A stretch of DNA of 64,000 bases, from positions 57,025 through 121,024 of IMG/VR virus record IMGVR_UViG_3300016472_000940; one strand, given 5' to 3'. Shown here one piece after another: positions 4,466 through 57,774 of this stretch. The notes under the pieces were generated by a model. It worked only from the letters and a program-made list of their open reading frames with translations. It did no database searches and was not told where the DNA came from. The position numbers and the translations under genes are program-made. Every line of letters begins with the position of its first letter. Within the stretch, counting starts at the first letter, position 1. Source of the stretch: a virus.

Positions 4466-6271
4466 ATGCCCGAATACGGAAATTCAGATAGCGGTAGAGA
4501 AAGTACCTTTGGCCGCTCACTAATGAATTATGTTAATTCACGCTTACCTTATCAGAGCTATACTGTTATAGATACTTTAAATAAGCTTAACCCCAAATTT
4601 AAGCTGTTTCAAGATACAGGTAGTAAGCGAACTGAAGCGCTAGCTAGGCAGAGCATAAGTTCAAACACAGGGTTTAATAATATTGATCCTGCAGGCATTA
4701 TAGGTCTAGATAATAATTTCACACAGTACATGTATGCTAATATACAGCATGACAAAATCTCTAGGCTTCGCGATTATAGAGTCATGGCAGCTTTTGCTGA
4801 AGTAGCTGATGCGTTGGATGAAATTTGTGATGAAGCAATCAACAAAGATAGGGATGGTAAAATTGTAAAGGTAAAATTCCCTGATTTAGAGATGAAAGCT
4901 GAAGACTTGGAGATATTGGAAAAGGAGTTTCAGAAATATATCAATCACTTTGATCTAGAAAATAAAGGATGGGAATATTTCAGAAGTCTTCTAGTGGACG
5001 GAGAGCTTTACTTTGAACATGTTGTCCACAAACAATATGAAGACGAAGGTATTCTCGGAACTGTTACTGTTCCAACAGAATTTATTGACCCTATTTTCGG
5101 TAATGTACAGAATATGATGATAAAGGGGTTTTTACTACGTAAACCTGTATTCGATAAAACAAACCCCTCAAAGATATTAGATTATGAACTAATACCGCTG
5201 GATAAAAACCAGGTCACATATATTAACTCTGGTATATGGAATGAAAACAAAACAATAAGATTACCCTTTATAGAAAATGCAAGACGCGCTTATAGGCAGT
5301 TAAGTCTTATTGAGGATGCAGTGGTAATATATAGATTGGCCCGTGCACCGGAAAGACTGGTCTTTAATGTAGATGTTGGTAATATGCCCCCACCAAAAGC
5401 TGAAGCCTACTTAAAGAAGCTAATGAACCAATATTGGTCTTCAAAAACATATGACAAAGATCAAGGTGGTGGTGCAGTTAAAAAGTTTAACCCTCAATCA
5501 ATTTTAGACAATTTTTGGTTTGCCAAGCGAGCCGGTAGTGAAGGCACAAAAATTGATAGGCTCGCTGGAGGTGAAAATCTCGGCAAGCTTGAAGATCTAG
5601 ATTATTTTCTTAAGAAACTTTATAAAAGTCTCAAGGTACCAGTATCGAGATTGAATGTTGATGATGCCTATAAAGATGATATGAACATTCTTAGAGAGGA
5701 ATTAAAATTTGCTAAATTTATTGTTAGGATGCAGCAGCAATTTTCAGAGGGACTAAAAAATGGATTTATTACACACTTAAAGCTAAGAAAACTCTGGCAA
5801 GAGTATGATCTCAAGGAGAATCATATACAAATTGAATTTAATGTGCCGGTGAATTTCTTTGAAATGCGTGAAGCACAAAAGCAAGAAATAAAAACAACAT
5901 CATTTGTTAATATTACTCAATCTGATGCTGTGAGTAAAACCTACGCTCTTAAGAAGTATATGGGATGGTCTGATATTGAGCTTCTAGCAAACAGAGAATT
6001 TATGAGAAAAGACATAGGCTTCTTGTGGGAACTTGAGCAAATTAAAGCCGGTGGTCCAAATTGGAGAGAAAATTTACAAGCCGGTGCACCACCCGCTGCT
6101 GGCGGGGAAATGCCTGGTGGCGGTGGCATGGGAGGCGGTACTGCTCCGGGTATTCCGCCTGCATTCGGACCAGCTCCAACAGGAGGTGCACCAGAGGCCG
6201 GTGCACCAGGCCCTGAGGCTGCTGCACCAGGCGGCCCGGTGCCTGCTCCCGGTGGTGAGGTTGTAACTTAA
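4466..6271 (+). CDS. Portal vertex protein (T4 gp20-like)
   Basis: YR.MA...EV.DALDEICDEAI, LVDGELYF, QLSLIEDAVVIYRLARAPERLVFNVDVGNMPPPKAEAYL, LYKSLKVPVSRL, REELKFAKFI. Confidence 0.95.
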   Translation: MPEYGNSDSGRESTFGRSLMNYVNSRLPYQSYTVIDTLNKLNPKFKLFQDTGSKRTEALARQSISSNTGFNNIDPAGIIGLDNNFTQYMYANIQHDKISRLRDYRVMAAFAEVADALDEICDEAINKDRDGKIVKVKFPDLEMKAEDLEILEKEFQKYINHFDLENKGWEYFRSLLVDGELYFEHVVHKQYEDEGILGTVTVPTEFIDPIFGNVQNMMIKGFLLRKPVFDKTNPSKILDYELIPLDKNQVTYINSGIWNENKTIRLPFIENARRAYRQLSLIEDAVVIYRLARAPERLVFNVDVGNMPPPKAEAYLKKLMNQYWSSKTYDKDQGGGAVKKFNPQSILDNFWFAKRAGSEGTKIDRLAGGENLGKLEDLDYFLKKLYKSLKVPVSRLNVDDAYKDDMNILREELKFAKFIVRMQQQFSEGLKNGFITHLKLRKLWQEYDLKENHIQIEFNVPVNFFEMREAQKQEIKTTSFVNITQSDAVSKTYALKKYMGWSDIELLANREFMRKDIGFLWELEQIKAGGPNWRENLQAGAPPAAGGEMPGGGGMGGGTAPGIPPAFGPAPTGGAPEAGAPGPEAAAPGGPVPAPGGEVVT

Positions 6272-6622
6272 TTAAGAAGATGGCTGTTCTGGCCAAATTA
6301 CATCTTTTGGTGTAGCAAAATTCTTTGTAATATCCCTCAATGCCTGTCTATATTGCGCCCACGCCGGTATAATACCAGCACCAGTATCATACGCTTTTAA
6401 TATTACCCAATCGGTATCTGCTAGTTTCTGATTTCTCATACCTCTAATAGTATTCCATGTAATGTTATCCAAGCGCTTATCTACAAACTTTCCATCCTCA
6501 TAAGTCCAACCCTCCTCAACGTCGGAACCACACTCGCGACACTCTATATGAACGCCATCCGCGCCTGCGAATGGCGTTTCCCTTATATTGACAACTTCAG
6601 ATTTATAAATTACAGCGTACAT
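6272..6622 (-). CDS. Tail fibre assembly chaperone
   Basis: IRGMRNQKLADTDW...WAQYRQALRDIT...VIWPEQP. Confidence 0.8.
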   Translation of the reverse strand: MYAVIYKSEVVNIRETPFAGADGVHIECRECGSDVEEGWTYEDGKFVDKRLDNITWNTIRGMRNQKLADTDWVILKAYDTGAGIIPAWAQYRQALRDITKNFATPKDVIWPEQPSS

Positions 6623-6625
6623 ATA

Positions 6626-26498: not shown

Positions 26499-26945
26499 AT
26501 GGATAAACTATACCTATCGTGGAATGAAATTAACAAGAGCTTACTAGAAATACATGAGCAGACTAAGAATTTAAGTGGTAATGCAGCAATTATAGGTCTT
26601 ACAAGAGGCGGTCTTTGCCCGGCTGTATTATTTTCACATATTAAGAATATAAAAGATTTTTATACATGCGGAATCAGAAGCTACGACAATCAAAATAAAG
26701 CCGCTGAAACTATGTTTCAATATCCCGATAAGCATGCACTTAAGCATAAGGAGGTTGTATATGTCATTGATGATATATGCGATACCGGTGGTACACTTAA
26801 GTTTCTAGAAAATTATCTCTTGCCTATTAAACCTATTTCAATTACACTTGTATATCGGACAAATGAAGGCTATAGACCGAATTATTTTGGTACAGAACTT
26901 TCGGACGAAAGATGGGTTGTTTTTCCCTGGGAAGAGACTAAATAA
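26499..26945 (+). CDS. Purine phosphoribosyltransferase (XGPRT-like)
   Basis: IIGLTRGGL, VYVIDDICDTGGTL (PRPP motif), WVVFPWE. Confidence 0.85.
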   Translation: MDKLYLSWNEINKSLLEIHEQTKNLSGNAAIIGLTRGGLCPAVLFSHIKNIKDFYTCGIRSYDNQNKAAETMFQYPDKHALKHKEVVYVIDDICDTGGTLKFLENYLLPIKPISITLVYRTNEGYRPNYFGTELSDERWVVFPWEETK

Positions 26946-38374: not shown

Positions 38375-39437
38375 AAGTCGGTGGTGCGTATTTTACGTAT
38401 TTATACGGTGATGATGGAGGATATACCTTAACAATAGTTTCTTGTGGAAAAGTATTAGTAAAACGCTTGGCCGCTTCCCTTGTTCTAAAGTATACATCTA
38501 CAATCGGACGTCCACCCCCGCTTGCTTTACGAGCTTTGACGGCACCTCCCGTGTCGACAGCTAATCTAGTACCAAGATTAGGTATAATTATACGACTTAA
38601 ATATGGTATTATGCACGGATCTACCGCCGCACTAATACCCTCGGCAAGTATACGCCCTGTCGAACTCATACCTAATGCTGTCCAAAAATCTGTACCAGGT
38701 CCCTCAGACCAATAAGCTGTCAGCCTAACAGGCAGATCAAAACCTTGGCTATTTCCCCCGCTGAACGCAGGTGAACCAAGTTGTTGCAGTGCCCCTTGAC
38801 CTGAATTATTAAAAGCAGCATTCAAGGCTTCGGCGTTTGCCATCTGTGTTGCTGTGGAGGCAATATTCTGTTGAGCGCTTGCAACAGTATTAGATATTTT
38901 ACTAGCTAACGCCTGTGGGTCTCTCAAATCTCTTATGTTTTTTGGTGTTAACTGTAATGCTTTATCTAAAGATCCTTGTAGTGCTTGCTGAATGGAACCA
39001 AACTGAGCACCTTGAGTAACACCGCTAAAAATTCCAGCCATTTGATTTGATGCTTGAGTAGAAAACGTATTAGCCGTTTGAAAAAGATCCTGTGATGTTT
39101 GAGCTAGCTGACCAACCGCATTAGCGCTAGGAAAATTTCCTAAAGTTTTACCTGCCGCAGCATTAATTAACCCTGTTGCTTGTTCTGTTACAGACGCGTT
39201 CAACTGACCTATACCATAATTAAGTTGTTGTTGAAAATTGGTTGGATTGATTAGTGCTTTGCTGCCCGACGAGTCTGTAGTAATAAAATTATCAGGTAGA
39301 AGGGAGTACGAGTTTTGGCTAAAGTCATCAAAATTAGGAATTGTAGTTAAATTTGCAACGTCATCTTGAGTCAACCCTTGTAATTTTTCTTGTAGCGCTT
39401 GCGTAGCTGCGGCTAAATCCTGTGCTTGGTAGTTCAC
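38361..39437 (-). CDS. Gln/Ala-rich protein with C-terminal 3D domain
   Basis: LTAYW...AAVDPCIIPY...AVDTGGAV...VDVYF; TAAATA at 39443-39448; coupled to the gp5-like gene. Confidence 0.7.
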   Translation of the reverse strand: MNYQAQDLAAATQALQEKLQGLTQDDVANLTTIPNFDDFSQNSYSLLPDNFITTDSSGSKALINPTNFQQQLNYGIGQLNASVTEQATGLINAAAGKTLGNFPSANAVGQLAQTSQDLFQTANTFSTQASNQMAGIFSGVTQGAQFGSIQQALQGSLDKALQLTPKNIRDLRDPQALASKISNTVASAQQNIASTATQMANAEALNAAFNNSGQGALQQLGSPAFSGGNSQGFDLPVRLTAYWSEGPGTDFWTALGMSSTGRILAEGISAAVDPCIIPYLSRIIIPNLGTRLAVDTGGAVKARKASGGGRPIVDVYFRTREAAKRFTNTFPQETIVKVYPPSSPYKYVKYAPPTYGAA

Positions 39438-39484
39438 ATTATTATTTAAATGGATTATACGGTTTTAACACGTATAATGAAGGT

Positions 39485-39907
39485 GTGAATACGTTTTTAC
39501 CTTATAGTGATTTTCATAAATCGGCTAAATCATTGGATAATAAGAGACTCGGAAAACAGCGGGTAGAAGTCATACAGATGCTAAACAAAATACACGGTTT
39601 TACAAAAGGCAGAGGCTGGACTAACCATCCATGTACAAAAATGTGGTCTAAACACCCTAACGCTTTAGTAAAATACGGTATTGCTGTATGTGAAGTGTGG
39701 AGATCGAGAGGGTTTAAGGACACTTGTTTAGAGAAAATTAGTAACTATCACAGATCAGATCTAACTAATGAAATGCCTGACTGGCTTGGTAGAGAAGACT
39801 TTCATACTTCACATAAATCCAATCTAATACAAAAATTTCCTGAGCATTACAGGCCTCAATTCAGTAATGTACCGGATAATCTGGAATATATTTGGCCGGT
39901 TATATAA
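39485..39907 (+). CDS. Pyrimidine-dimer DNA glycosylase family (DenV/MSMEG_6728-like)
   Basis: TFLPY..F..SA..LD.KRLGKQRVE..Q...GW.NHP...MW...SH.SNL..K.P.HY; GTG start follows a promoter at 39451-39478. Confidence 0.8.
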   Translation: MNTFLPYSDFHKSAKSLDNKRLGKQRVEVIQMLNKIHGFTKGRGWTNHPCTKMWSKHPNALVKYGIAVCEVWRSRGFKDTCLEKISNYHRSDLTNEMPDWLGREDFHTSHKSNLIQKFPEHYRPQFSNVPDNLEYIWPVI

Positions 39908-39908
39908 T

Positions 39909-40721
39909 ATGATAATGAAAGTTTCGCACGAAACTCCCATTTCACTATTAGATGTATCTCGTCAGTACAATGATTTTGATTATTGTTTGGTACATTTATT
40001 AGACCAATATCCGGAATATAAACAATTTTATGAAACAGCACGTACAGCGTACGATCGAGAAGTTTTATTAGATAATTCTATATTTGAATTAGGAAAAGCA
40101 TTTGACTCACAACAGTTCTATGAATCAACTCTCGACATAGAGCCAAATATGTTTATAGTTCCAGATGTATTAGAGGATATGTACGGTACAGTAGATAGCT
40201 TTAAAGCTTTTGAATCCAAGAAGAACGATATAAAAAATACGTTTCTTACTAAAGCTATAGGCGCTGTTCAAGGTAAGAACTGGCAAGAATTAAGGGAATG
40301 TTATAAGTTTATGGCTGAACGGGCTGATATGATAGCTATTAGCTTTGATTTTAGTTACTACCAACATACTGGCCAAGGCTGGCACCATCTAGAGAGATGG
40401 TGTTCCGGTCGACAGCGTTTTATTGAAGATTTAATAAATAATGGTGTATGGAGGTGGGATAAGCCGCATCACCTTTTAGGGTGTTCGCTTGCAAAGGAAT
40501 TTAGGTTCTATGTCGATAGAAACATTTACAATATTGTGTCTTGTGATACTAGCAATCCAATTGTTGCCGCTATTCATGGATTAAAGTATGATGCTGATTA
40601 CGGTCTTGATACCAAACCTTCAACTAAGTTAGCTGATTTAATTACACATAAATTTACAGAAGATCAGCTTGAACTTGTAAAATACAACACAGCAATGTTT
40701 AAAAAGATTATTCGTAGATGA
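39909..40721 (+). CDS. tRNA-guanine transglycosylase-like protein (DpdA3-like)
   Basis: LLDNSIFELG, PDVL, GAVQG, HHLLG, SCDTSNP: TGT barrel motifs; lies near queF. Confidence 0.7.
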   Translation: MIMKVSHETPISLLDVSRQYNDFDYCLVHLLDQYPEYKQFYETARTAYDREVLLDNSIFELGKAFDSQQFYESTLDIEPNMFIVPDVLEDMYGTVDSFKAFESKKNDIKNTFLTKAIGAVQGKNWQELRECYKFMAERADMIAISFDFSYYQHTGQGWHHLERWCSGRQRFIEDLINNGVWRWDKPHHLLGCSLAKEFRFYVDRNIYNIVSCDTSNPIVAAIHGLKYDADYGLDTKPSTKLADLITHKFTEDQLELVKYNTAMFKKIIRR

Positions 40722-41284
40722 GACCCTGGGTAGCTTTTTTTTCACAAACAGGAACAGAAATAAACAATCTTTCAAGAGAGCTAGGTCTATACCCTGAAGC
40801 TATAATTACTAATCGTCAAGACACGAACGGGGTTAACTCTGGTTTAATTAATACAACAGCATTTAGAACACACAAGCTTAACCGAACAATATGGCATACA
40901 CTACCGCAAAAGCCTGTACTCGAGTCTTATATGGAGGTCTTATCTAAATTTAGCAACCCGATTATAACGTTGCACGGCTACTTAAGAATAATACCAAAGG
41001 AAATTTGTGAAAAATATGAGATCTACAACCTACACCCTGGATTAATTACGAGATACCCAGAGCTTAAAGGGTTTAATCCACAAGAACGTGCATTTACGCA
41101 AGGCTATCATACCGCAGGGTGTGTTATTCACAAAGTTACACCTGGAGTCGACGAAGGCCCTATAGTAAGAGAGGGAGAGATTAGTATTGACAACTTAACG
41201 CTACCCGAGGTCTATAGCGACCTACATAAATTAGCATTTAAATTATGGAAAAGTTTCTTAACTGAGGATATAGCAATAGTATAA
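40718..41284 (+). CDS. PurN-like formyltransferase (DpdN-like)
   Basis: FFSQTGTE, LHGYLRII, YNLHPGL, GCVIHKVTPGVDEGPI. Confidence 0.8.
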   Translation: MRPWVAFFSQTGTEINNLSRELGLYPEAIITNRQDTNGVNSGLINTTAFRTHKLNRTIWHTLPQKPVLESYMEVLSKFSNPIITLHGYLRIIPKEICEKYEIYNLHPGLITRYPELKGFNPQERAFTQGYHTAGCVIHKVTPGVDEGPIVREGEISIDNLTLPEVYSDLHKLAFKLWKSFLTEDIAIV

Positions 41285-41285
41285 T

Positions 41286-42257
41286 ATGGACATTTCCTTA
41301 CACTACGAAAACGTTTATTTAAAACCTAATTTTAATACAGTTAGTACTCGATCTAGCATTGATACTGAAATTAATTTTTTAGGAAAAACTTTTAGTTTGC
41401 CTGTAATACCAGCAAATATGAAATGCTGTGTTGACTATGATGTGTGTAAGTTTTTAGACCTAAACAACTATTTTTATATTATGCATAGGTTTGATATAGA
41501 TATTATAAAATTTGTTGAGGAAGCCAACGATACCACCTGGATGAATAAGTTTAAAACCGTTTCTATTAGCCTAGGCATTCAACAAAAAGACGCTCAAATT
41601 GTTACTGATATAGCCTCACGCAAACTACATGTCGATTATATTACTATCGATGTTGCTCATGGACATCATTCAAAAGTTGCTAAGCAAATTGAACATATAA
41701 AAAATACTCTACCAACAGCGAAGATAATTGCTGGTAATGTAGCAACGTTTAGAGGTGTTGAATATTTAAATAATGCAGGGGCTGACGCTATTAAAGTTGG
41801 TATAGGCGGCGGCTATGCATGTACGACGAAGGACAAGACAGGGTTCACATATCCTATGTTTAGCTGTATCTTGGAGTGCACTAAGGACAGGAATATACCT
41901 ATAATTGCTGATGGCGGTATTCGATGTAACGGTGATATTGCTAAGGCTTTAGTCGCTGGTGCAACAATGGTAATGTGCGGTTCAATATTTGCTGCATGTA
42001 CAGATAGTCCAGCACCAACAGTCAAAGATTCTTCCGGTAGAAGGTACAAGCAATACTATGGTTCAGCCAGTATTCACAATAAGATGGATAAAAAGAACAT
42101 CGAAGGTACAATGAAGCTTATGGATACAGATAGCTTTACATACGAAGAAAAATTATTAGAAATTACTCAAGACCTACAGAGCGCTATTAGCTATGCAGGT
42201 GGTTGCAATTTAAAAGCACTAAACCTATATAATGTACAATACGGGGTAAGAATGTGA
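41286..42257 (+). CDS. guaC: GMP reductase
   Basis: PVIPANM, YIMHRF, ITIDVAHGH, IAGNVAT, KVGIGGGYACTT, IADGGIR, YYGSAS, LQSAISYAG; no CBS domains. Confidence 0.85.
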   Translation: MDISLHYENVYLKPNFNTVSTRSSIDTEINFLGKTFSLPVIPANMKCCVDYDVCKFLDLNNYFYIMHRFDIDIIKFVEEANDTTWMNKFKTVSISLGIQQKDAQIVTDIASRKLHVDYITIDVAHGHHSKVAKQIEHIKNTLPTAKIIAGNVATFRGVEYLNNAGADAIKVGIGGGYACTTKDKTGFTYPMFSCILECTKDRNIPIIADGGIRCNGDIAKALVAGATMVMCGSIFAACTDSPAPTVKDSSGRRYKQYYGSASIHNKMDKKNIEGTMKLMDTDSFTYEEKLLEITQDLQSAISYAGGCNLKALNLYNVQYGVRM

Positions 42258-42601
42258 ATCCTGATGATGTAGTAAAAGTAGTTGAGGGGTCATATCCAGA
42301 GACTTGCGAGGAATTTAAGAAAATACAAAAAGAACAATATGAAGTTTTTTGTAAGAAACAATATGATTACGGGCCGCATAATATTAGTCTAGGGTCAGAT
42401 TTACACAAAAGAGAAGACATTCAAGCTTCAGTTTCTGCAATAGTTGTTCGTCTTAACGATAAGATACAGAGACTTATAAATTTAGTTTTAAGAAAAAAGA
42501 CATTTGAGACAGCTAATGAGCCTATTTTTGATGCATTTTCAGATACTTCTGTATATTGTATTATTGCTGAAATAGTTAAACGAAAGAAGTGGTGCAAATG
42601 A
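42254..42601 (+). CDS. DUF1599 / nucleotide-modification-associated domain 1 protein
   Basis: F..KQYDYG..NI.....VRLNDKIQRL.NL......E...D...D...Y.II. Confidence 0.75.
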   Translation: MNPDDVVKVVEGSYPETCEEFKKIQKEQYEVFCKKQYDYGPHNISLGSDLHKREDIQASVSAIVVRLNDKIQRLINLVLRKKTFETANEPIFDAFSDTSVYCIIAEIVKRKKWCK

Positions 42602-42744
42602 AATGGACAGAAATTAAAAACCGTTGGGTTGATGATGAAAATCATCTTCTTAAAGGATACCCGACAAAAGAACTTAGTATTATTAATGTTAGTTGGTGGA
42701 AGTATTTTATATTGAAGGTAAAATCACTTTTTAAAAGGGATTGA
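42598..42744 (+). CDS. Small hypothetical protein (48 aa)
   Basis: Hand-translated MKWTEIKNRWVDDENHLLKGYPTKELSIINVSWWKYFILKVKSLFKRD; ATGA overlap with the upstream stop. Confidence 0.5.
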   Translation: MKWTEIKNRWVDDENHLLKGYPTKELSIINVSWWKYFILKVKSLFKRD

Positions 42745-42768
42745 CTTTAACGTACCGTATATTATAAT
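42741..42768 (+). promoter_or_regulatory. Sigma70-like promoter
   Basis: TTGACT-N16-TATAAT, 7 nt before ATG 42776. Confidence 0.7.
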
Positions 42769-42775
42769 TGGTTAT

Positions 42776-43363
42776 ATGGTGAATATAACTTTCACAGGTC
42801 CGCAGTGTTCAGGTAAAACTACTTTACTTAAGAAGATGAGGTATAGTGGAGGTATATTTGATAAGTTTTATTATATTGACGAAGTTACAAGAAAAATAAG
42901 GGACGAATGTAACGTACCTATTAATGAAGAGGGTGCAAATGATATAACTCAATTGTTAATTATAAACGAGGAACTAAAGAATTTGTTTAATTGTGGTTCT
43001 ATGGGAGATTGGTGTAGGGGCACTGTGCATGATAGGTGTTTGCTAGACGGGTTAGTCTTTACCGAATACTTTTATGACAATAAGCTAGTTAGTCAGCCGG
43101 TATGGGATCAGGCGTTGAGATATTGGTACAAGTTTTTCGGGAAGTATGATATTATATTCTATCCAAATCCGCATGATGTTGAATTAGAGGATGATGGTGA
43201 AAGAAGTATTGACGTAAAGTTTAGAAATGCAATTATTGACAAGTATGAAAATTATTATCTAAGTCAGTTTCAATGGAAAGATAAAGTACATATTTTAAAA
43301 GGAACAGTTGAAGAACGAATGGAACAGATTAAAATAGTCCTCAATGAACACAGTATTAGATAA
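42776..43363 (+). CDS. P-loop nucleotide kinase (AAA_28/NadR-like)
   Basis: ITFTGPQCSGKTTL, DRCLLD, YDIIFY, EDDGER, GTVEERM. Confidence 0.8.
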   Translation: MVNITFTGPQCSGKTTLLKKMRYSGGIFDKFYYIDEVTRKIRDECNVPINEEGANDITQLLIINEELKNLFNCGSMGDWCRGTVHDRCLLDGLVFTEYFYDNKLVSQPVWDQALRYWYKFFGKYDIIFYPNPHDVELEDDGERSIDVKFRNAIIDKYENYYLSQFQWKDKVHILKGTVEERMEQIKIVLNEHSIR

Positions 43364-44270
43364 TAGCAATATTTCCAAGCATCTTGGTAGAATAACCGGG
43401 TATAAATCCACATATGACCCGTCGTTATTAGTTCGCGAACCTAGAATTAACAATAGAAAGCATCTAGGAATTACAGATGACAGCGTAGATAGCCTGGTAC
43501 CGTTTTGCGGCTATGATATATGGAATGCTTATGAGGTTTCGTGCTTAACAAACGAAGGTATGCCCATTGCAGCAATAGCTAAGATTGTGTACCCTTGTAG
43601 AAACAGGTATATTGTTGAGTCAAAATCAATCAAGCTATACTTAAATTCATTCAATATGCAAAAGTTTAAAGGATCAATGTCACAAATTGTTGAGGAATTG
43701 CAGCGTACCATTGCAAAGGACTTATCTAATTTGCTTGAAACCGAGGTTAAGGTTCATGTTAAACCGACAAGAACGATTGTTGATAGTGTTTTTTACCCTC
43801 CTGTTTTTTCTAATAAAGACTATCCCACTCTAGAGAGTAATATTGATGTGACCATGATTGGCGCGCCCAATTATTCTGAAACACCAAGCCTATTAAGTGC
43901 AGTAGAAAGCACCGTGTCGACAGTCCAGCGGTTTCATTCAGCTTTATTAAAGTCTAACTGCCGGGTGACAAGCCAACCTGATTGGGGTGATATATATATT
44001 CATTACAAAGGTAAGTATGCTATAAACCCTACCTCATTATTGCAATATATAGTGTCCTTCCGTGATGAATGTCATTTTCATGAAGAAATTTGTGAGACCA
44101 TTTACATGCGCTTATTTGAAAAGTTTAATCCTGAGGAGCTCTTAGTTTCGTGTTTGTATGTGAGGCGTGGAGGTATAGATATTAACCCAACAAGAGCTAG
44201 TAACTATAGTCTTCTAGATAAATGCCTTATTGATGAAACAAAGTATTTTACTAAAACTGTAAGACAATAA
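43344..44270 (+). CDS. queF: NADPH-dependent preQ0 reductase QueF (long, bimodular type)
   Basis: YDPSLL, DIWNAYEVS, VESKSIKLYLNSF, LKSNCRVTSQPDWG, FHEEICE, YVRRGGIDINP. Confidence 0.92.
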   Translation: MNTVLDNSNISKHLGRITGYKSTYDPSLLVREPRINNRKHLGITDDSVDSLVPFCGYDIWNAYEVSCLTNEGMPIAAIAKIVYPCRNRYIVESKSIKLYLNSFNMQKFKGSMSQIVEELQRTIAKDLSNLLETEVKVHVKPTRTIVDSVFYPPVFSNKDYPTLESNIDVTMIGAPNYSETPSLLSAVESTVSTVQRFHSALLKSNCRVTSQPDWGDIYIHYKGKYAINPTSLLQYIVSFRDECHFHEEICETIYMRLFEKFNPEELLVSCLYVRRGGIDINPTRASNYSLLDKCLIDETKYFTKTVRQ

Positions 44271-44273
44271 CTG

Positions 44274-44639
44274 TTATTGCAATTTTAACAAATAACAAGT
44301 TTGGTTTAAAACACTTAACATCTCATCTCGGATATTCAATAAATCTGAATCAATTTGAGGGTTTAATTTACAAGTAAGTTCAGATAGGAAAGTCTTGTAC
44401 GTGTCCATAGCCGTACAAATATCTAATTCTTTAATATCAAATAGCTTTATATCGATATTACCATTGGAAAAACATGCCTCTTTTCTTCCTAACGCTGTTT
44501 CTACAAAAGTATCAATCAATCCGTCCAAAGACTCATAAGCTTTGCCTAGGGCCTTGTGTTGTGTGTAACTTTCTGTCTGCCAATGAAAAATACGCAATTG
44601 ATTTTGTATTTGTAATAGGTCTCTAACCGCATCGTGCAT
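44274..44639 (-). CDS. Ferritin/Dps-like four-helix protein (DUF5856-like)
   Basis: QLRIFHWQT.SY..HKAL...Y..L..LID.FVE...G...NIRDEML.....YLL. Confidence 0.7.
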   Translation of the reverse strand: MHDAVRDLLQIQNQLRIFHWQTESYTQHKALGKAYESLDGLIDTFVETALGRKEACFSNGNIDIKLFDIKELDICTAMDTYKTFLSELTCKLNPQIDSDLLNIRDEMLSVLNQTCYLLKLQ

Positions 44640-56000: not shown

Positions 56001-57774
56001 TGATGGTAATGGTAATAATACCGGTAAAATTAAACCTAATAATGATTTTAGAAGTGTTGCTGCAATAGGCGCGGGGGCAACTTATTCTAATTTTTCTAAA
56101 TTTGGTACTGGTAGCGTTTCACTCTCTATGACCCCTGCACTACAATTTAGCAGCAATTCCACCTTCAAACCTGGAATAAGAATTTACGGTAACTTTTACT
56201 ATACGGGCGCTTTTAATAATAGTTATATGGCAGGTGATTTTTGTATTGAAGGTTTTTTCTACTTCACCGATTTTAGATCGTCAACTTATATTCATTACCC
56301 TTACGCTAATACTGCTACTATATTGGATCCAATATTATTTGGACTTTTTGATTATAATTATTTCAGTAATCGGGACGTAGAAAACTACGGTCTTAATGTT
56401 AGAGCACATAGAACCTCAGGAAGTACTACTTTTATTAAAGCTAGTTTTGGTGAGTCAGTCAGTTCTTTTTCGCAAGCACTAACTTCAAATACTCAATGTC
56501 TTAGTCTTAACACCTGGCACCATGTAGCCCTACAAAGATCCAACAATACATCTAAGGTTTTTGTAGATGGAGTTCCTGTAATAACCAAAACGAATGATAT
56601 ATCTGTTTATACTTTTAGCGGTTACAACCCTATTAATTTTGGCGGGTACCCTTACATGTACGGAAGTTCCGGTGAAAATTTTTGTAATTCTATGGTTCTT
56701 ATAGATGAAATAAGAGGTGTATTTGGCGCTACCGTATATGACCCTGAAGGATTTTCTCCACCTACATCATCCTTAACTACATCAACATTTACAGTCTCTT
56801 CCTTTTATCTTAACCATACCATACAAAAAGATATAAAAGAAACAGAAAATGATTATTATAAAGTTTTTACTCTACCTAACAACAGTATTCCTTATGTAAG
56901 GGAAATACCTTCTATACAAACTTTAGTAAGTACTGCTTCTACCATATCAGTTAGTCCTTCTGCAACTTTTATGATACCCAGTTCAGGGAGACTTTTATTA
57001 GGATCTGAATATATTCATTACTCTAAAGTAGCCACAAAACCTTCAGGAGAACAAGTTCTTGAGATAAAAAACCGTAATGTAGGGGGTCTCGCTTCTCCTG
57101 GAGATATTAACCTTTACACAAACAACACATATACAAACATTTTTTCAATTAATAATAACTGCTCCCCTGCTCTTTCTCATTGGGGTACTTCTGTTATTAT
57201 GGATGGATTATTTACTGAGGATAAATCTTATTTGTTTACAGCTTCCATGTCGGCGTTTGCATTTCCCGAGTCTACCTTGATAGATGTTCCTTTGGTATCC
57301 ATTAGACTTGCACCTGCAGCAGATTATGGGTTGGGGTCACCACTGGGCATAAGAAACCTTATCAACAGGTCAATTATAACATTAAATGATATTCAGATAG
57401 TCACCAGACAAGCTGTAAGTATTACCGTGAAAGTAAATGCAGACTCACCTCTTTGGGCACAGTCCTCAAAATGGTTACCGGCCGGTAACGGTAGTATTTC
57501 ACAATATATGGATCACTCCTTGCCTAGTAATGTAGCTCCAATTAGTGGTGGAGTTGTGGTATTCGGGTTTCTCGCCGGAGAACAAGAGGTAGGAAGAAAC
57601 CAGGTCACACAATATCCTATAAGTATAATTAGAAATCTTGGAAATTCTATTCTTGGGGGAGATCGAGTTTATCCTGATGGTCCAGACATATTAACAGTTT
57701 TTGCTAGACCATTTACTAGCAGTTTAAGCAATAGAACGTTGGCTAAAATAAGCTGGCTTGAAGCTCAAGGTTAA
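53056..57774 (+). CDS. Large tail fibre/baseplate-associated protein, paralogue B, with LamG-like insert
   Basis: Same conserved blocks as paralogue A plus DFCIEGFFYF...WHHVALQR...VFVDG...IDEIR; ATG 53056 overlaps the upstream stop. Confidence 0.7.
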   Translation: MSFPYNNNTIGNRIFKPIQNDAVERLRTSAPQSMIDTDFEYSLQPTKWETLELMNNIPSFFNKFEDILIPAESIIGLSATSTLNVTVSTVPANISLWPDPQPSYNGPIAAGWTREVHHIDESASNGTFYNSPIGFNININNVSINRVGFHGGGAIVFGTGNSLGYYSDYGENTNNVSGALTGRVMFLSAGSVIPNIDYGIAPPGNIFDASAVFKRQVSGGTNPLGPYYVSNTDNLTIINDGSLGGDDAGIYTSPFQVSLRRVYFRTLDAGQPNERKVYYVFCTGPGLTYWPNTTFNRTNRFLNYGKEPSRKVVEIYRNQPRVDITTISGTSGLDSWTEQPGGPVLNRNMFTQFGISYGVDVLYNEGNHSTTTSQLQGSAKRINYGAIKAGGGVLLRISNTATQTLSVGQPIFIDNSLESTVDGTGIVVGLSSNPSFTDYTIIPRKRFIPTSVRRNYATTLTNIYPAGIYTNSSIPFTSIVPISGTDSVMIRTPNPHNMYLGQPFFVVDPTKSDFDQFPWIGGFTVDTIKDTNSFTYKTNTAAFPEITTFTNLNTVKLYVRPEGIARHRYTDGGVQINSGNNTPYTQIIRQTRNYFRYQSGKSILFSTGLLFKPSYDVESFTVDASQYLNQQAPIINLTIKTEQPHGFALDSSYLEGPLIQTREFSVRSGINRYNDLFRVTGIVNEYIFTISIPVSSSFSSLYASPGYAAPSDFFPGGNPKVDVIEWNDVAVRSGMYDEQNGIYFECDGRRLKVGKRTSTLNLAGTVSVAADSNIVTGQGTKFLSQLQVNDYITIKGISFIVTGIISDTLLYISPKYSAQTNSGIKITKRIDEVVNQENFNLDKLDGTGPSGYTINLNKMQMIYFDYSWYGAGRIRWGVRSTDGSIVYCHEMPNNNVNTEAYMRSGNLPARFEIINLPQTGKLLQGNKINILASNTIANSAILVNVKKASTPQGPFFNMTPPVSARLLPFSNPAANTGFIYNFDGNGNNTGKIKPNNDFRSVAAIGAGATYSNFSKFGTGSVSLSMTPALQFSSNSTFKPGIRIYGNFYYTGAFNNSYMAGDFCIEGFFYFTDFRSSTYIHYPYANTATILDPILFGLFDYNYFSNRDVENYGLNVRAHRTSGSTTFIKASFGESVSSFSQALTSNTQCLSLNTWHHVALQRSNNTSKVFVDGVPVITKTNDISVYTFSGYNPINFGGYPYMYGSSGENFCNSMVLIDEIRGVFGATVYDPEGFSPPTSSLTTSTFTVSSFYLNHTIQKDIKETENDYYKVFTLPNNSIPYVREIPSIQTLVSTASTISVSPSATFMIPSSGRLLLGSEYIHYSKVATKPSGEQVLEIKNRNVGGLASPGDINLYTNNTYTNIFSINNNCSPALSHWGTSVIMDGLFTEDKSYLFTASMSAFAFPESTLIDVPLVSIRLAPAADYGLGSPLGIRNLINRSIITLNDIQIVTRQAVSITVKVNADSPLWAQSSKWLPAGNGSISQYMDHSLPSNVAPISGGVVVFGFLAGEQEVGRNQVTQYPISIIRNLGNSILGGDRVYPDGPDILTVFARPFTSSLSNRTLAKISWLEAQG
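55526..55795 (+). repeat. 270-bp direct repeat, copy 2
   Basis: Matches 51696-51965. Confidence 0.9.

Follow-up and report, generated by a model that had tools for sequence, protein, structure and literature searches.

We analysed a stretch of 64,000 nucleotides (hereafter the window), positions 57,025 to 121,024 of the IMG/VR virus record IMGVR_UViG_3300016472_000940, which is the final 64 kb of a linear record of 121,024 bp, estimated to be 57% complete, from an uncultured T4-like phage. The window carries an operon that is probably a new, expanded copy of the DpdA3 DNA modification system, predicted from its sequence to replace guanine with 7-(formylamino)methyl-7-deazaguanine (fdPreQ1), with additional genes that would act as helpers in the nucleotide pool. 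The core of the system, consisting of the transglycosylase DpdA3, the formyltransferase DpdN, and the nitrile reductase QueF, is already known; what goes beyond the main text of its published description (PMC10516641) is the pairing of a P-loop kinase with DpdA3, a slot occupied by a DUF1599 protein, and an accessory GMP reductase, GuaC. The pairing of the kinase with DpdA3 is the strongest new point, and the three extra genes together hint that part of the base swap may be carried out on free nucleotides.

The reference point for the core is Flavobacterium phage immuto, whose DNA contains dA, dC, and dT plus a 324-Da nucleoside identified as fdPreQ1, and in which replacement of G is complete (main text of Cui, Hutinet et al., Nucleic Acids Research 2023; PMC10516641). 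The same text credits DpdA3 with complete modification of three phage genomes, those of CP220, phiST, and immuto; other DpdA subfamilies are described as reaching at most about 30% G replacement (passages in the 2023 and 2019 Hutinet papers). The DpdA3-like protein of the window is 42% identical (E = 1e-65) to immuto gp206, annotated "DNA guanine transglycosylase," and 45% identical to its CP220 homologue; DpdN is 47% identical (E = 8e-58) to immuto gp204, and QueF is 46% identical (E = 4e-90) to immuto gp202. Because this module is orthologous to that of immuto, whose DNA carries formyl-preQ1 in place of G, we identify the core with the known system: judged by sequence comparison, the window holds an orthologous, expanded copy of it, and the formyl-preQ1 type that an earlier note on this DNA had predicted is well founded. 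The same core is present in every one of 21 IMG/VR loci, to the extent that each locus covers it.

The individual proteins agree with this assignment to different degrees. The earlier note had described the transglycosylase as TGT-fold and had called for its classification; it groups with DpdA3 and not with tRNA-acting Tgt, and the fold label comes from orthology to published DpdA3 proteins, no match to a TGT family having been obtained. In the alignment of DpdA3 proteins, an LDN motif and an S-x-D-T/S motif are invariant, and these may contain the counterparts of the catalytic Asp residues of TGT enzymes. The Atlas clusters nearest to the window protein are viral; one is automatically named a transglycosylase and another has the PF23859 DpdA family on 17% of its members, which we treat as a lead only. 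The closest solved relatives of DpdN are PurN proteins (E = 1e-11), with NLHPGL and VDEGPI aligned to NIHPSL and MDEGPI, and QueF scores 261 bits against TIGR03138, whose cut-off is 293.

Several results weigh against this reading, and those that concern the core are the following; those that concern the helper genes are given with each gene. The window DpdA3-like protein gave no Pfam match, TGT included, even at E ≤ 10, and a profile built from ten DpdA3 proteins (A4) found no TGT in the PDB. In the main text of PMC10516641, the activity of immuto gp204 (YP_010114479.1), there renamed DpdN, is only predicted, and DpdA3 was not reconstituted in E. coli. The earlier note reported that folE, queD, queE, and queC are missing from the window; folE, queD (PTPS), queE, and queC were in fact not found anywhere in the 121-kb record, and the source of preQ0 is thus one that we infer. 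QueC, FolE, and QueD were each found in four of five larger relatives (G001 to G004, not the 43%-complete G005), and a QueE-like gene was found in two of the five genomes searched, G001, where it lies beside QueD and FolE, and G012. Since the window contig ends 19.7 kb after the cluster and the preQ0 genes of G001 (229.7 kb, 100% complete) lie at 155 to 178 kb, about 76 to 99 kb from a cluster near 79 kb, the missing genes most probably lie in the part of the genome that was not sequenced.

QueF and the preQ0 genes are common to the queuosine pathway, and a role of such genes in queuosine metabolism has been raised for phages that lack DpdA (in a passage of Hutinet et al. 2019). That the window genes likewise serve tRNA queuosine metabolism, boosting the host's Q-tRNA, and not DNA modification, is nonetheless extremely improbable: they include an orthologue of DpdA3, and the DNA is fully modified in both of the phage groups in which DpdA3 has been characterised (main text of PMC10516641); this orthologue has no Pfam TGT match, and the gene order is that of a phage with proven DNA modification.

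Because the operon is orthologous to that of a phage whose DNA was analysed by liquid chromatography-mass spectrometry, we infer the following steps. FolE, QueD, QueE, and QueC would convert GTP to preQ0, which QueF would reduce to preQ1; DpdA3 would exchange guanine for deazaguanine, and DpdN would formylate the aminomethyl group. The kinase would be a small-molecule (deoxy)nucleoside or nucleotide kinase working with DpdA3, DUF1599 would sit in the slot of a (d)GTP pyrophosphohydrolase, and GuaC would turn surplus or displaced guanine nucleotides into IMP, a conversion that may be useful to an AT-rich, G-free genome but would be dispensable for the modification itself.

Some relatives carry variants of the core. 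In one locus (L015:5911-6824) two open reading frames (ORFs) take the place of a single DpdA3 gene, owing to a frameshift or a sequencing error, and in four others (L082, L084, L086, and L088) the ORF matching DpdN is about 300 codons long, compared with about 190 elsewhere, and may include an extra domain. Two loci (L007:8810-10393 and L008:2662-5585) have a tryptophan-halogenase-like FAD enzyme (PF04820, E = 2e-75) between DpdA3 and DpdN, and L008 also has an AsnB-type amidotransferase; these genes suggest that some relatives elaborate the deazaguanine base further, in a way not yet described.

The A4 profile had at least 539 matches in IMG/VR, and we examined the gene neighbourhoods of the best 80 of these, so the counts that follow are biased towards the window clade; some of the 80 loci are the same contigs as those of our first locus set (L002 to L022). 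The kinase is present in 76 of the 80 DpdA3 loci, and the other four end 880 to 2000 bp after DpdA3. The most frequent order after DpdA3 is DpdN, DUF1599, kinase, QueF (19 loci, plus 5 with GuaC upstream), followed by kinase, QueF (18 loci), the window's order of DpdN, GuaC, DUF1599, kinase, QueF (17 loci), DpdN, a MazZ-like gene, kinase, QueF (9 loci, plus 2 variants), and DpdN, kinase, QueF (5 loci); the last 5 loci have other forms, mostly cut by the contig end. Where the kinase directly follows DpdA3 (18 loci), the two genes overlap by 4 to 17 nt or lie 1 to 4 nt apart. In two loci (L009:5398-6447 and L011:10708-11757) DUF1599 and the kinase are separated by the gene for a 349-aa protein that has an Ig-like He_PIG domain.

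The pairing was also seen by tblastn among 50,697 GenBank phage records, for which counts include GenBank/RefSeq duplicates. DpdA3 was found in 20 records (14 Campylobacter, 4 immuto, Chryseobacterium MA9V-3, and Weizmannia Youna2) and the kinase in 25 (17 Campylobacter, 4 Flavobacterium immuto, and 4 Streptomyces); 18 of the 20 DpdA3 records are also in the kinase list, corresponding to about 13 distinct phages once duplicates are set aside. In CP220, DpdA3 (gp056) is followed 42 nt on by the kinase (gp057), and the gene upstream, gp055, encodes a fusion of an HD domain with an AAA_33 kinase. The DpdA3-like genes of MA9V-3 and Youna2 are each abutted by a P-loop gene, of the AAA_18/AAA_33 type in MA9V-3 and encoding a 183-aa protein in Youna2; we considered the Youna2 protein as a homologue of the kinase and rejected it, as its P-loop alone aligns to the kinase profile (6% probability). 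The kinase family is not exclusive to DpdA3 phages, because Streptomyces phages that are not among the DpdA3 matches carry a homologue beside an FkbM-type methyltransferase. In one of them, LukeCage (L032, locus 5213-6624), the homologue (AAA_28, E = 4e-17) directly follows the methyltransferase gene and may be part of a different pathway of nucleotide or DNA modification.

The window kinase is 28% identical (E = 4e-17) to immuto gp203 and 31% identical to the CP220 kinase. All Foldseek matches listed (to rank 50) for its AlphaFold2 model (pLDDT 87.7) are deoxyadenosine, deoxycytidine, multisubstrate deoxynucleoside, or deoxyguanosine kinases (dAK, dCK, dNK, dGK) or the ribosylnicotinamide kinase NadR, with E values from 4e-7 and TM scores of 0.60 to 0.71, and the kinase profile matched the deoxynucleoside kinase 8puu in the PDB (E = 1.3e-4), with the P-loop, a Gln, and the DR motif aligned. 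E36, Q59, D86-R87, R143, and R150 are invariant in the family alignment; presumably the P-loop, Glu, Gln, D-R, and Arg-rich lid motifs have their usual roles here. Thymidylate kinase chains matched the profile only at E = 0.13 to 0.3, over the P-loop or the N-terminal part, and none occurs among the Foldseek matches listed; because of this, and because Foldseek gives deoxynucleoside kinases and NadR, the "thymidylate kinase" label that PHROGs and RefSeq attach to the protein is doubtful, and the modelled fold appears deoxynucleoside-kinase-like and not clearly that of a thymidylate kinase. The earlier note had the kinase phosphorylate the modified nucleotide; its place in the neighbourhood is borne out by its recurrence, but with a nucleoside-kinase-like fold the substrate may be a nucleoside and not a nucleotide. 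Complex prediction for DpdA3 with the kinase scored 0.00 in both runs and is informative neither way.

The same note did not recall GuaC, DUF1599, or this kinase as established parts of the pathway, and the literature agrees: the words "kinase," "GMP reductase," "GuaC," and "DUF1599" do not occur in the main text of PMC10516641, and we found no paper tying a GMP reductase, DUF1599, or the kinase to 7-deazaguanine DNA, although Supplementary Data S1 of PMC10516641 or Crippen et al. 2019 may mention the kinase.

The second recurrent helper is a putative nucleotide hydrolase. As a family, the DUF1599 proteins bear the label that the window copy had been given: 16 of 25 aligned homologues matched PF07659 at E ≤ 1 (best 4.4e-7), the family was precomputed for 1 of 102 homologue clusters, and Pfam describes it as "Nucleotide modification associated domain 1." As a recurrent neighbour the protein also stands, but the window copy itself misses PF07659 even at E ≤ 10. 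Its AlphaFold2 model is a helix bundle (pLDDT 89.5), for which the only near-full-length VIA-align match was 2p06_B (Z 7.8, root mean square deviation 3.4, 86 residues aligned), a score within noise for helical bundles; we take 2p06 (AF_0060) to be a member of the all-alpha NTP pyrophosphatase superfamily. Foldseek returned nothing at E ≤ 0.001, with the mouse protein 2a3q and the RS21-C6 entry 2oig, presumably MazG-like dCTPases, at E = 2.5 to 5.9 only, and the family profile gave chance-level matches only against PDB sequences. In the corresponding slot between DpdN and the kinase, a sister clade has proteins of 116 to 136 aa; a profile of four of them (A2) matches the slot ORF in 11 of the 80 loci, and the two of the four that were scanned both matched PF18909 ("dATP/dGTP diphosphohydrolase, N-terminal") at E = 2e-20. 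Direct comparison of DUF1599 with PF18909-type proteins by hhalign gave 1% probability, over a 16-column D/K-Y-G-x-N-N motif, a negative result.

Hydrolases of other types accompany DpdA3 elsewhere. In immuto, the "hydrolase" encoded two genes upstream of DpdA3, gp208, belongs to the PRA-PH family (E = 3e-10); in CP220 the HD domain of the HD-kinase fusion is encoded directly upstream of DpdA3, and in phiST a dUTPase/MazG gene lies in the same gene run as DpdA3 (main text of PMC10516641). A nucleotide (pyro)phosphohydrolase of some kind is found near DpdA3 in five lineages, and by analogy DUF1599, which occupies the slot of a (d)GTP pyrophosphohydrolase, is a candidate for such an enzyme.

To explain how all of the guanine is replaced, incorporation of a modified dGTP by the polymerase had been proposed for Campylobacter phages, with the remark that undetected 2'-deoxyribosyltransferases could exist (passages of Hutinet et al. 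2019); this route was set aside in 2023 once the transglycosylase had been found, and all 7-deazaguanine DNA marks were then proposed to be post-replicative (main text of PMC10516641). Tentatively, and with more doubt than confidence, we suggest that DpdA3 systems reach 100% replacement pre-replicatively, on free nucleosides or nucleotides. A phosphohydrolase (DUF1599, the MazZ-like or PRA-PH-like protein, or the CP220 HD domain) would first convert dGTP to dGMP or deoxyguanosine, DpdA3 would then swap guanine for deazaguanine on the free nucleoside or nucleotide, and the deoxynucleoside-kinase-like enzyme would re-phosphorylate the product for the polymerase; the displaced guanine could be taken by a Gpt-like phosphoribosyltransferase and either recycled via GTP to preQ0 or removed by GuaC. 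The "remove G, supply analogue" route of the earlier note survives here in part: the kinase and DUF1599 do recur and such a route is plausible, but removal of G competes with the need of GTP for preQ0, and GuaC is dispensable.

The published alternative, in which DpdA3 acts on finished DNA, would make the P-loop protein an ATP-hydrolysing partner of DpdA3, analogous in function to DpdB, instead of a nucleotide kinase, and leave DUF1599 and GuaC as unrelated neighbours from nucleotide metabolism. It can draw on the requirement of bacterial DpdA for the ATPase DpdB when inserting preQ0 into DNA (Gedara et al., Nucleic Acids Research 2023; PMC10164549), on the failure of DpdA3 alone in E. coli (main text of PMC10516641), and on the overlapping or closely abutting DpdA3 and P-loop genes of the 18 loci described above, an arrangement that fits a two-subunit enzyme. 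The P-loop protein, however, has the fold and motifs of deoxynucleoside kinases and NadR, with no DNA-binding or DNA-acting protein among the Foldseek matches listed; nucleotide (pyro)phosphohydrolase genes recur beside DpdA3 in the five lineages; and free ADG nucleoside was detected in CP220-infected cells (cited in PMC10516641). We regard this alternative as less likely than not, and the role of an ATPase partner as about as probable as the pre-replicative route.

GuaC is the least constant of the extra genes. The window protein is probably a real GMP reductase, as predicted from its sequence: its best PDB match is the GMP reductase 1ypf (E = 4.4e-78 over 308 residues), it has the IMPDH/GMPR barrel domain without the CBS insert, and its C-T-T and EG align with C-I-T and EG, the C-x-T and EG residues being, we assume, the catalytic Cys/Thr and Glu. 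On the other side, it scores below the curated cut-offs of NF003966 (336 versus 344 bits) and TIGR01306 (298.6 versus 465.65). The earlier note had made GuaC part of the removal of G and had proposed a survey of its co-occurrence with dpd genes, and here the linkage is partial. GuaC lies in the cluster beside DUF1599 in 19 of the 80 loci and beyond or upstream of a baseplate-hub gene in 5 more, all 24 being of the DUF1599 type, and all four of the most complete relatives that were checked carry it; but it does not occur within 6 kb in the other 56 loci, nor in the complete genomes of immuto and CP220. Because it is absent from these two phages, both reported to be fully modified, GuaC is not needed for full G replacement. 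Copies lie far from the cluster in G004 (53% identity) and the complete genome G012 (48%), and none was found in four contigs that are 27 to 60% complete or in two smaller fragments. We therefore place GuaC outside the replacement mechanism and regard it as a recurrent accessory of this aquatic clade, which most simply would convert guanine nucleotides to IMP. Drainage of the dGTP precursor pool, as first suggested, is possible, against which stands the one GTP needed for each deazaguanine made.

Whether GuaC has any specific tie to the system seems to us an even call. It could instead be an auxiliary metabolic gene that AT-rich phages carry in general, converting surplus guanine nucleotides from host breakdown to IMP for adenine nucleotides; its place in the dpd operon would then reflect no more than the tendency of nucleotide genes to cluster. 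Homologues occur in 73 varied phage records, including Bacillus phage G, Caulobacter Cr30, and Xanthomonas XacN1, and none of the 40 of these that were listed is among the 20 DpdA3 records; the gene moves among relatives, being in the cluster, upstream of the baseplate hub, or far away, and is missing from immuto and CP220; and the window is AT-rich (24 to 42% G+C). Set against this, the four most complete relatives of the aquatic DpdA3 group that were checked (G001, G002, G003, and G012) all carry GuaC, two diverged lineages of it (71 to 80% and 48 to 53% identical to the window copy) suggest selection within the group, and clustered copies touch or overlap the ORF annotated as DUF1599. A phage PurA, which would take IMP on to AMP, was found in none of the five genomes searched, which speaks both against this general role and against our own reading.

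ToyE and TubD, of toyocamycin and tubercidin biosynthesis, are GMP-reductase homologues that act on a 7-deazaguanine nucleotide. A GMP-reductase homologue embedded in a deazapurine operon, in a genome with a 6-oxopurine phosphoribosyltransferase, could in the same way yield a 7-deaza-hypoxanthine-type nucleotide and thus a base other than fdPreQ1. This we consider very improbable, given that no PurA-like partner was found in the five genomes, the closest solved relative is an ordinary GMP reductase, GuaC is optional in otherwise identical loci, and the immuto module gives fdPreQ1 without it (main text of PMC10516641).

The Gpt/XGPRT-like phosphoribosyltransferase, about 13 kb upstream of the operon, matches PRK09177 at E = 4.7e-18, below that model's cut-off, and shares 35% identity (E = 1e-20) with immuto gp211, a protein encoded among the que genes of that phage. 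It is also present in G001, G002, G003, and G012, gave a weak match only in CP220 (E = 5e-4), and was not found in Youna2, MA9V-3, or the half-complete G004. It is possibly a distant member of the system that salvages the guanine displaced by DpdA3 or ribosylates the deazaguanine base.

All seven genes of the co-oriented run that the earlier note had described are present on the + strand at 39422 to 44270, together with one 51-aa ORF (Table 1; family labels are from Pfam, NCBIfam, and PHROG profile searches of the ORF translations). Successive junctions are +1, -4, +1, and -4 nt, then a gap of 174 nt that holds the 51-aa ORF, then -20 nt. The first of the seven, a predicted pyrimidine-dimer DNA glycosylase of the T4 endonuclease V family, had been counted as part of the operon, which the relatives do not bear out: it abuts DpdA3 only in this window. 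Just 2 of the 80 loci have a homologue within 6 kb of DpdA3, never adjacent, and in L016 and L018 of the first locus set the homologue lies elsewhere. It is a neighbour and not a member of the conserved module, although probably co-transcribed, and its true start may be later than the listed GTG. The 51-aa ORF had no family match in Pfam or PHROG searches; ORFs 46 to 49% identical to it occupy the same position in L007 and L008 (tblastn). The promoter-like site before the kinase was the top score of a scan that found 30 sites against 23.3 expected, and it may serve as an internal promoter from which the kinase and QueF are transcribed without a leader. A DUF5856 gene is convergent to QueF, and its position is kept in several relatives.

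Table 1. Features of the operon and associated genes, in window coordinates
Feature	Position	Strand	Basis
DenV-like pyrimidine-dimer DNA glycosylase (predicted), MSMEG_6728 family	39422..39907	+	PF03013 E 6.1e-22; NF038085 169.8 bits vs cut-off 100
DpdA3-family 7-deazaguanine transglycosylase homologue, 270 aa from ATG at 39909	39909..40721	+	Orthology; phrog_19058 E 4.9e-55
DpdN-like PurN-family formyltransferase (predicted preQ1 or dPreQ1 formylase)	40718..41284	+	PF00551 E 1.7e-16
GMP reductase homologue GuaC, Firmicutes-type, no CBS insert	41286..42257	+	PF00478 E 2.9e-54
DUF1599 / Nmad1-family four-helix protein, 115 aa, candidate all-alpha nucleotide pyrophosphohydrolase	42254..42601	+	phrog_1485 E 5e-13
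51-aa ORF between DUF1599 and kinase	42589..42744	+	ORF list
Promoter-like site TTGACT, 16 nt, TATAAT (11/12)	42741..42768	+	Consensus match; ends 7 nt before kinase start
P-loop kinase, deoxynucleoside-kinase / NadR-RNK type	42776..43363	+	AAA_28 E 9.7e-13
Bimodular QueF, predicted preQ0 to preQ1 nitrile reductase	43344..44270	+	PF14819 (QueF_N) E 1e-33; PF14489 (QueF) E 2.9e-23
Gpt/XGPRT-like purine phosphoribosyltransferase	26499..26945	+	PF00156 match at G000:C1:83553-83957
DUF5856 gene	44274-44639	-	Matching PHROG labelled "starvation-inducible transcriptional regulator"

The interest of the operon lies in the conserved kinase and hydrolase partners and not in GuaC, which looks like a clade-level add-on. 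The DpdA3-kinase pairing and the recurrent nucleotide hydrolases name the components that may be missing for reconstitution and make the choice between a pre-replicative and a post-replicative route testable at the bench. If the pre-replicative route is true, a TGT-family enzyme works on mononucleotides, and the post-replicative origin published for all 7-deazaguanine DNA marks would have to be given up. There is a practical interest as well, since DNA free of G resists many restriction enzymes.

The pre-replicative proposal has precedents in the base-replacement pathways of other phages. T4 makes its hydroxymethylcytosine DNA with a dCTPase, a dCMP hydroxymethylase, and a dNMP kinase, and Z-genome phages use MazZ, PurZ, and DatZ. 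Like these pathways, the window combines an NTP (pyro)phosphohydrolase (here a candidate), a base-changing enzyme, and a kinase, in this case encoded side by side; unlike them, its base-changing enzyme would be a transglycosylase of the TGT-like kind, the known relatives of which have polynucleotides as their substrates. With the bacterial DpdA/DpdB system (PMC10164549) the window shares a transglycosylase accompanied by a separate ATP-using protein, for which the kinase is a candidate, but the fold of the window kinase is deoxynucleoside-kinase-like, and its likeness to DpdB would be one of function.

Among DpdA3 systems, the dADG system of CP220 (Crippen et al. 2019, as presented in the Hutinet papers) resembles the window in having DpdA3 followed by a homologous kinase, with complete G replacement cited, but has no QueF or DpdN in the neighbourhood seen, has the HD-domain/kinase fusion upstream of DpdA3, and lacks GuaC; Campylobacter phages stop synthesis at CDG (main text of PMC10516641), unlike the window with its QueF and DpdN. 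The closest counterpart is immuto, where DpdA (gp206) is followed by a 50-aa ORF, the formyltransferase (gp204), the "thymidylate kinase" (gp203), and QueF (gp202), and where FolE, QueE, QueD, a phosphoribosyltransferase, and the "hydrolase" are encoded just upstream of DpdA. The two share the order DpdA3, DpdN, kinase, QueF (42, 47, 28, and 46% identity) and the Gpt-like phosphoribosyltransferase (35%). The window differs in that GuaC, DUF1599, and the 51-aa ORF separate DpdN from the kinase and that DpdA3 has a DenV-like gene before it, with no preQ0 genes nearby, whereas immuto has no GuaC and has a PRA-PH-type protein where the window clade has DUF1599.

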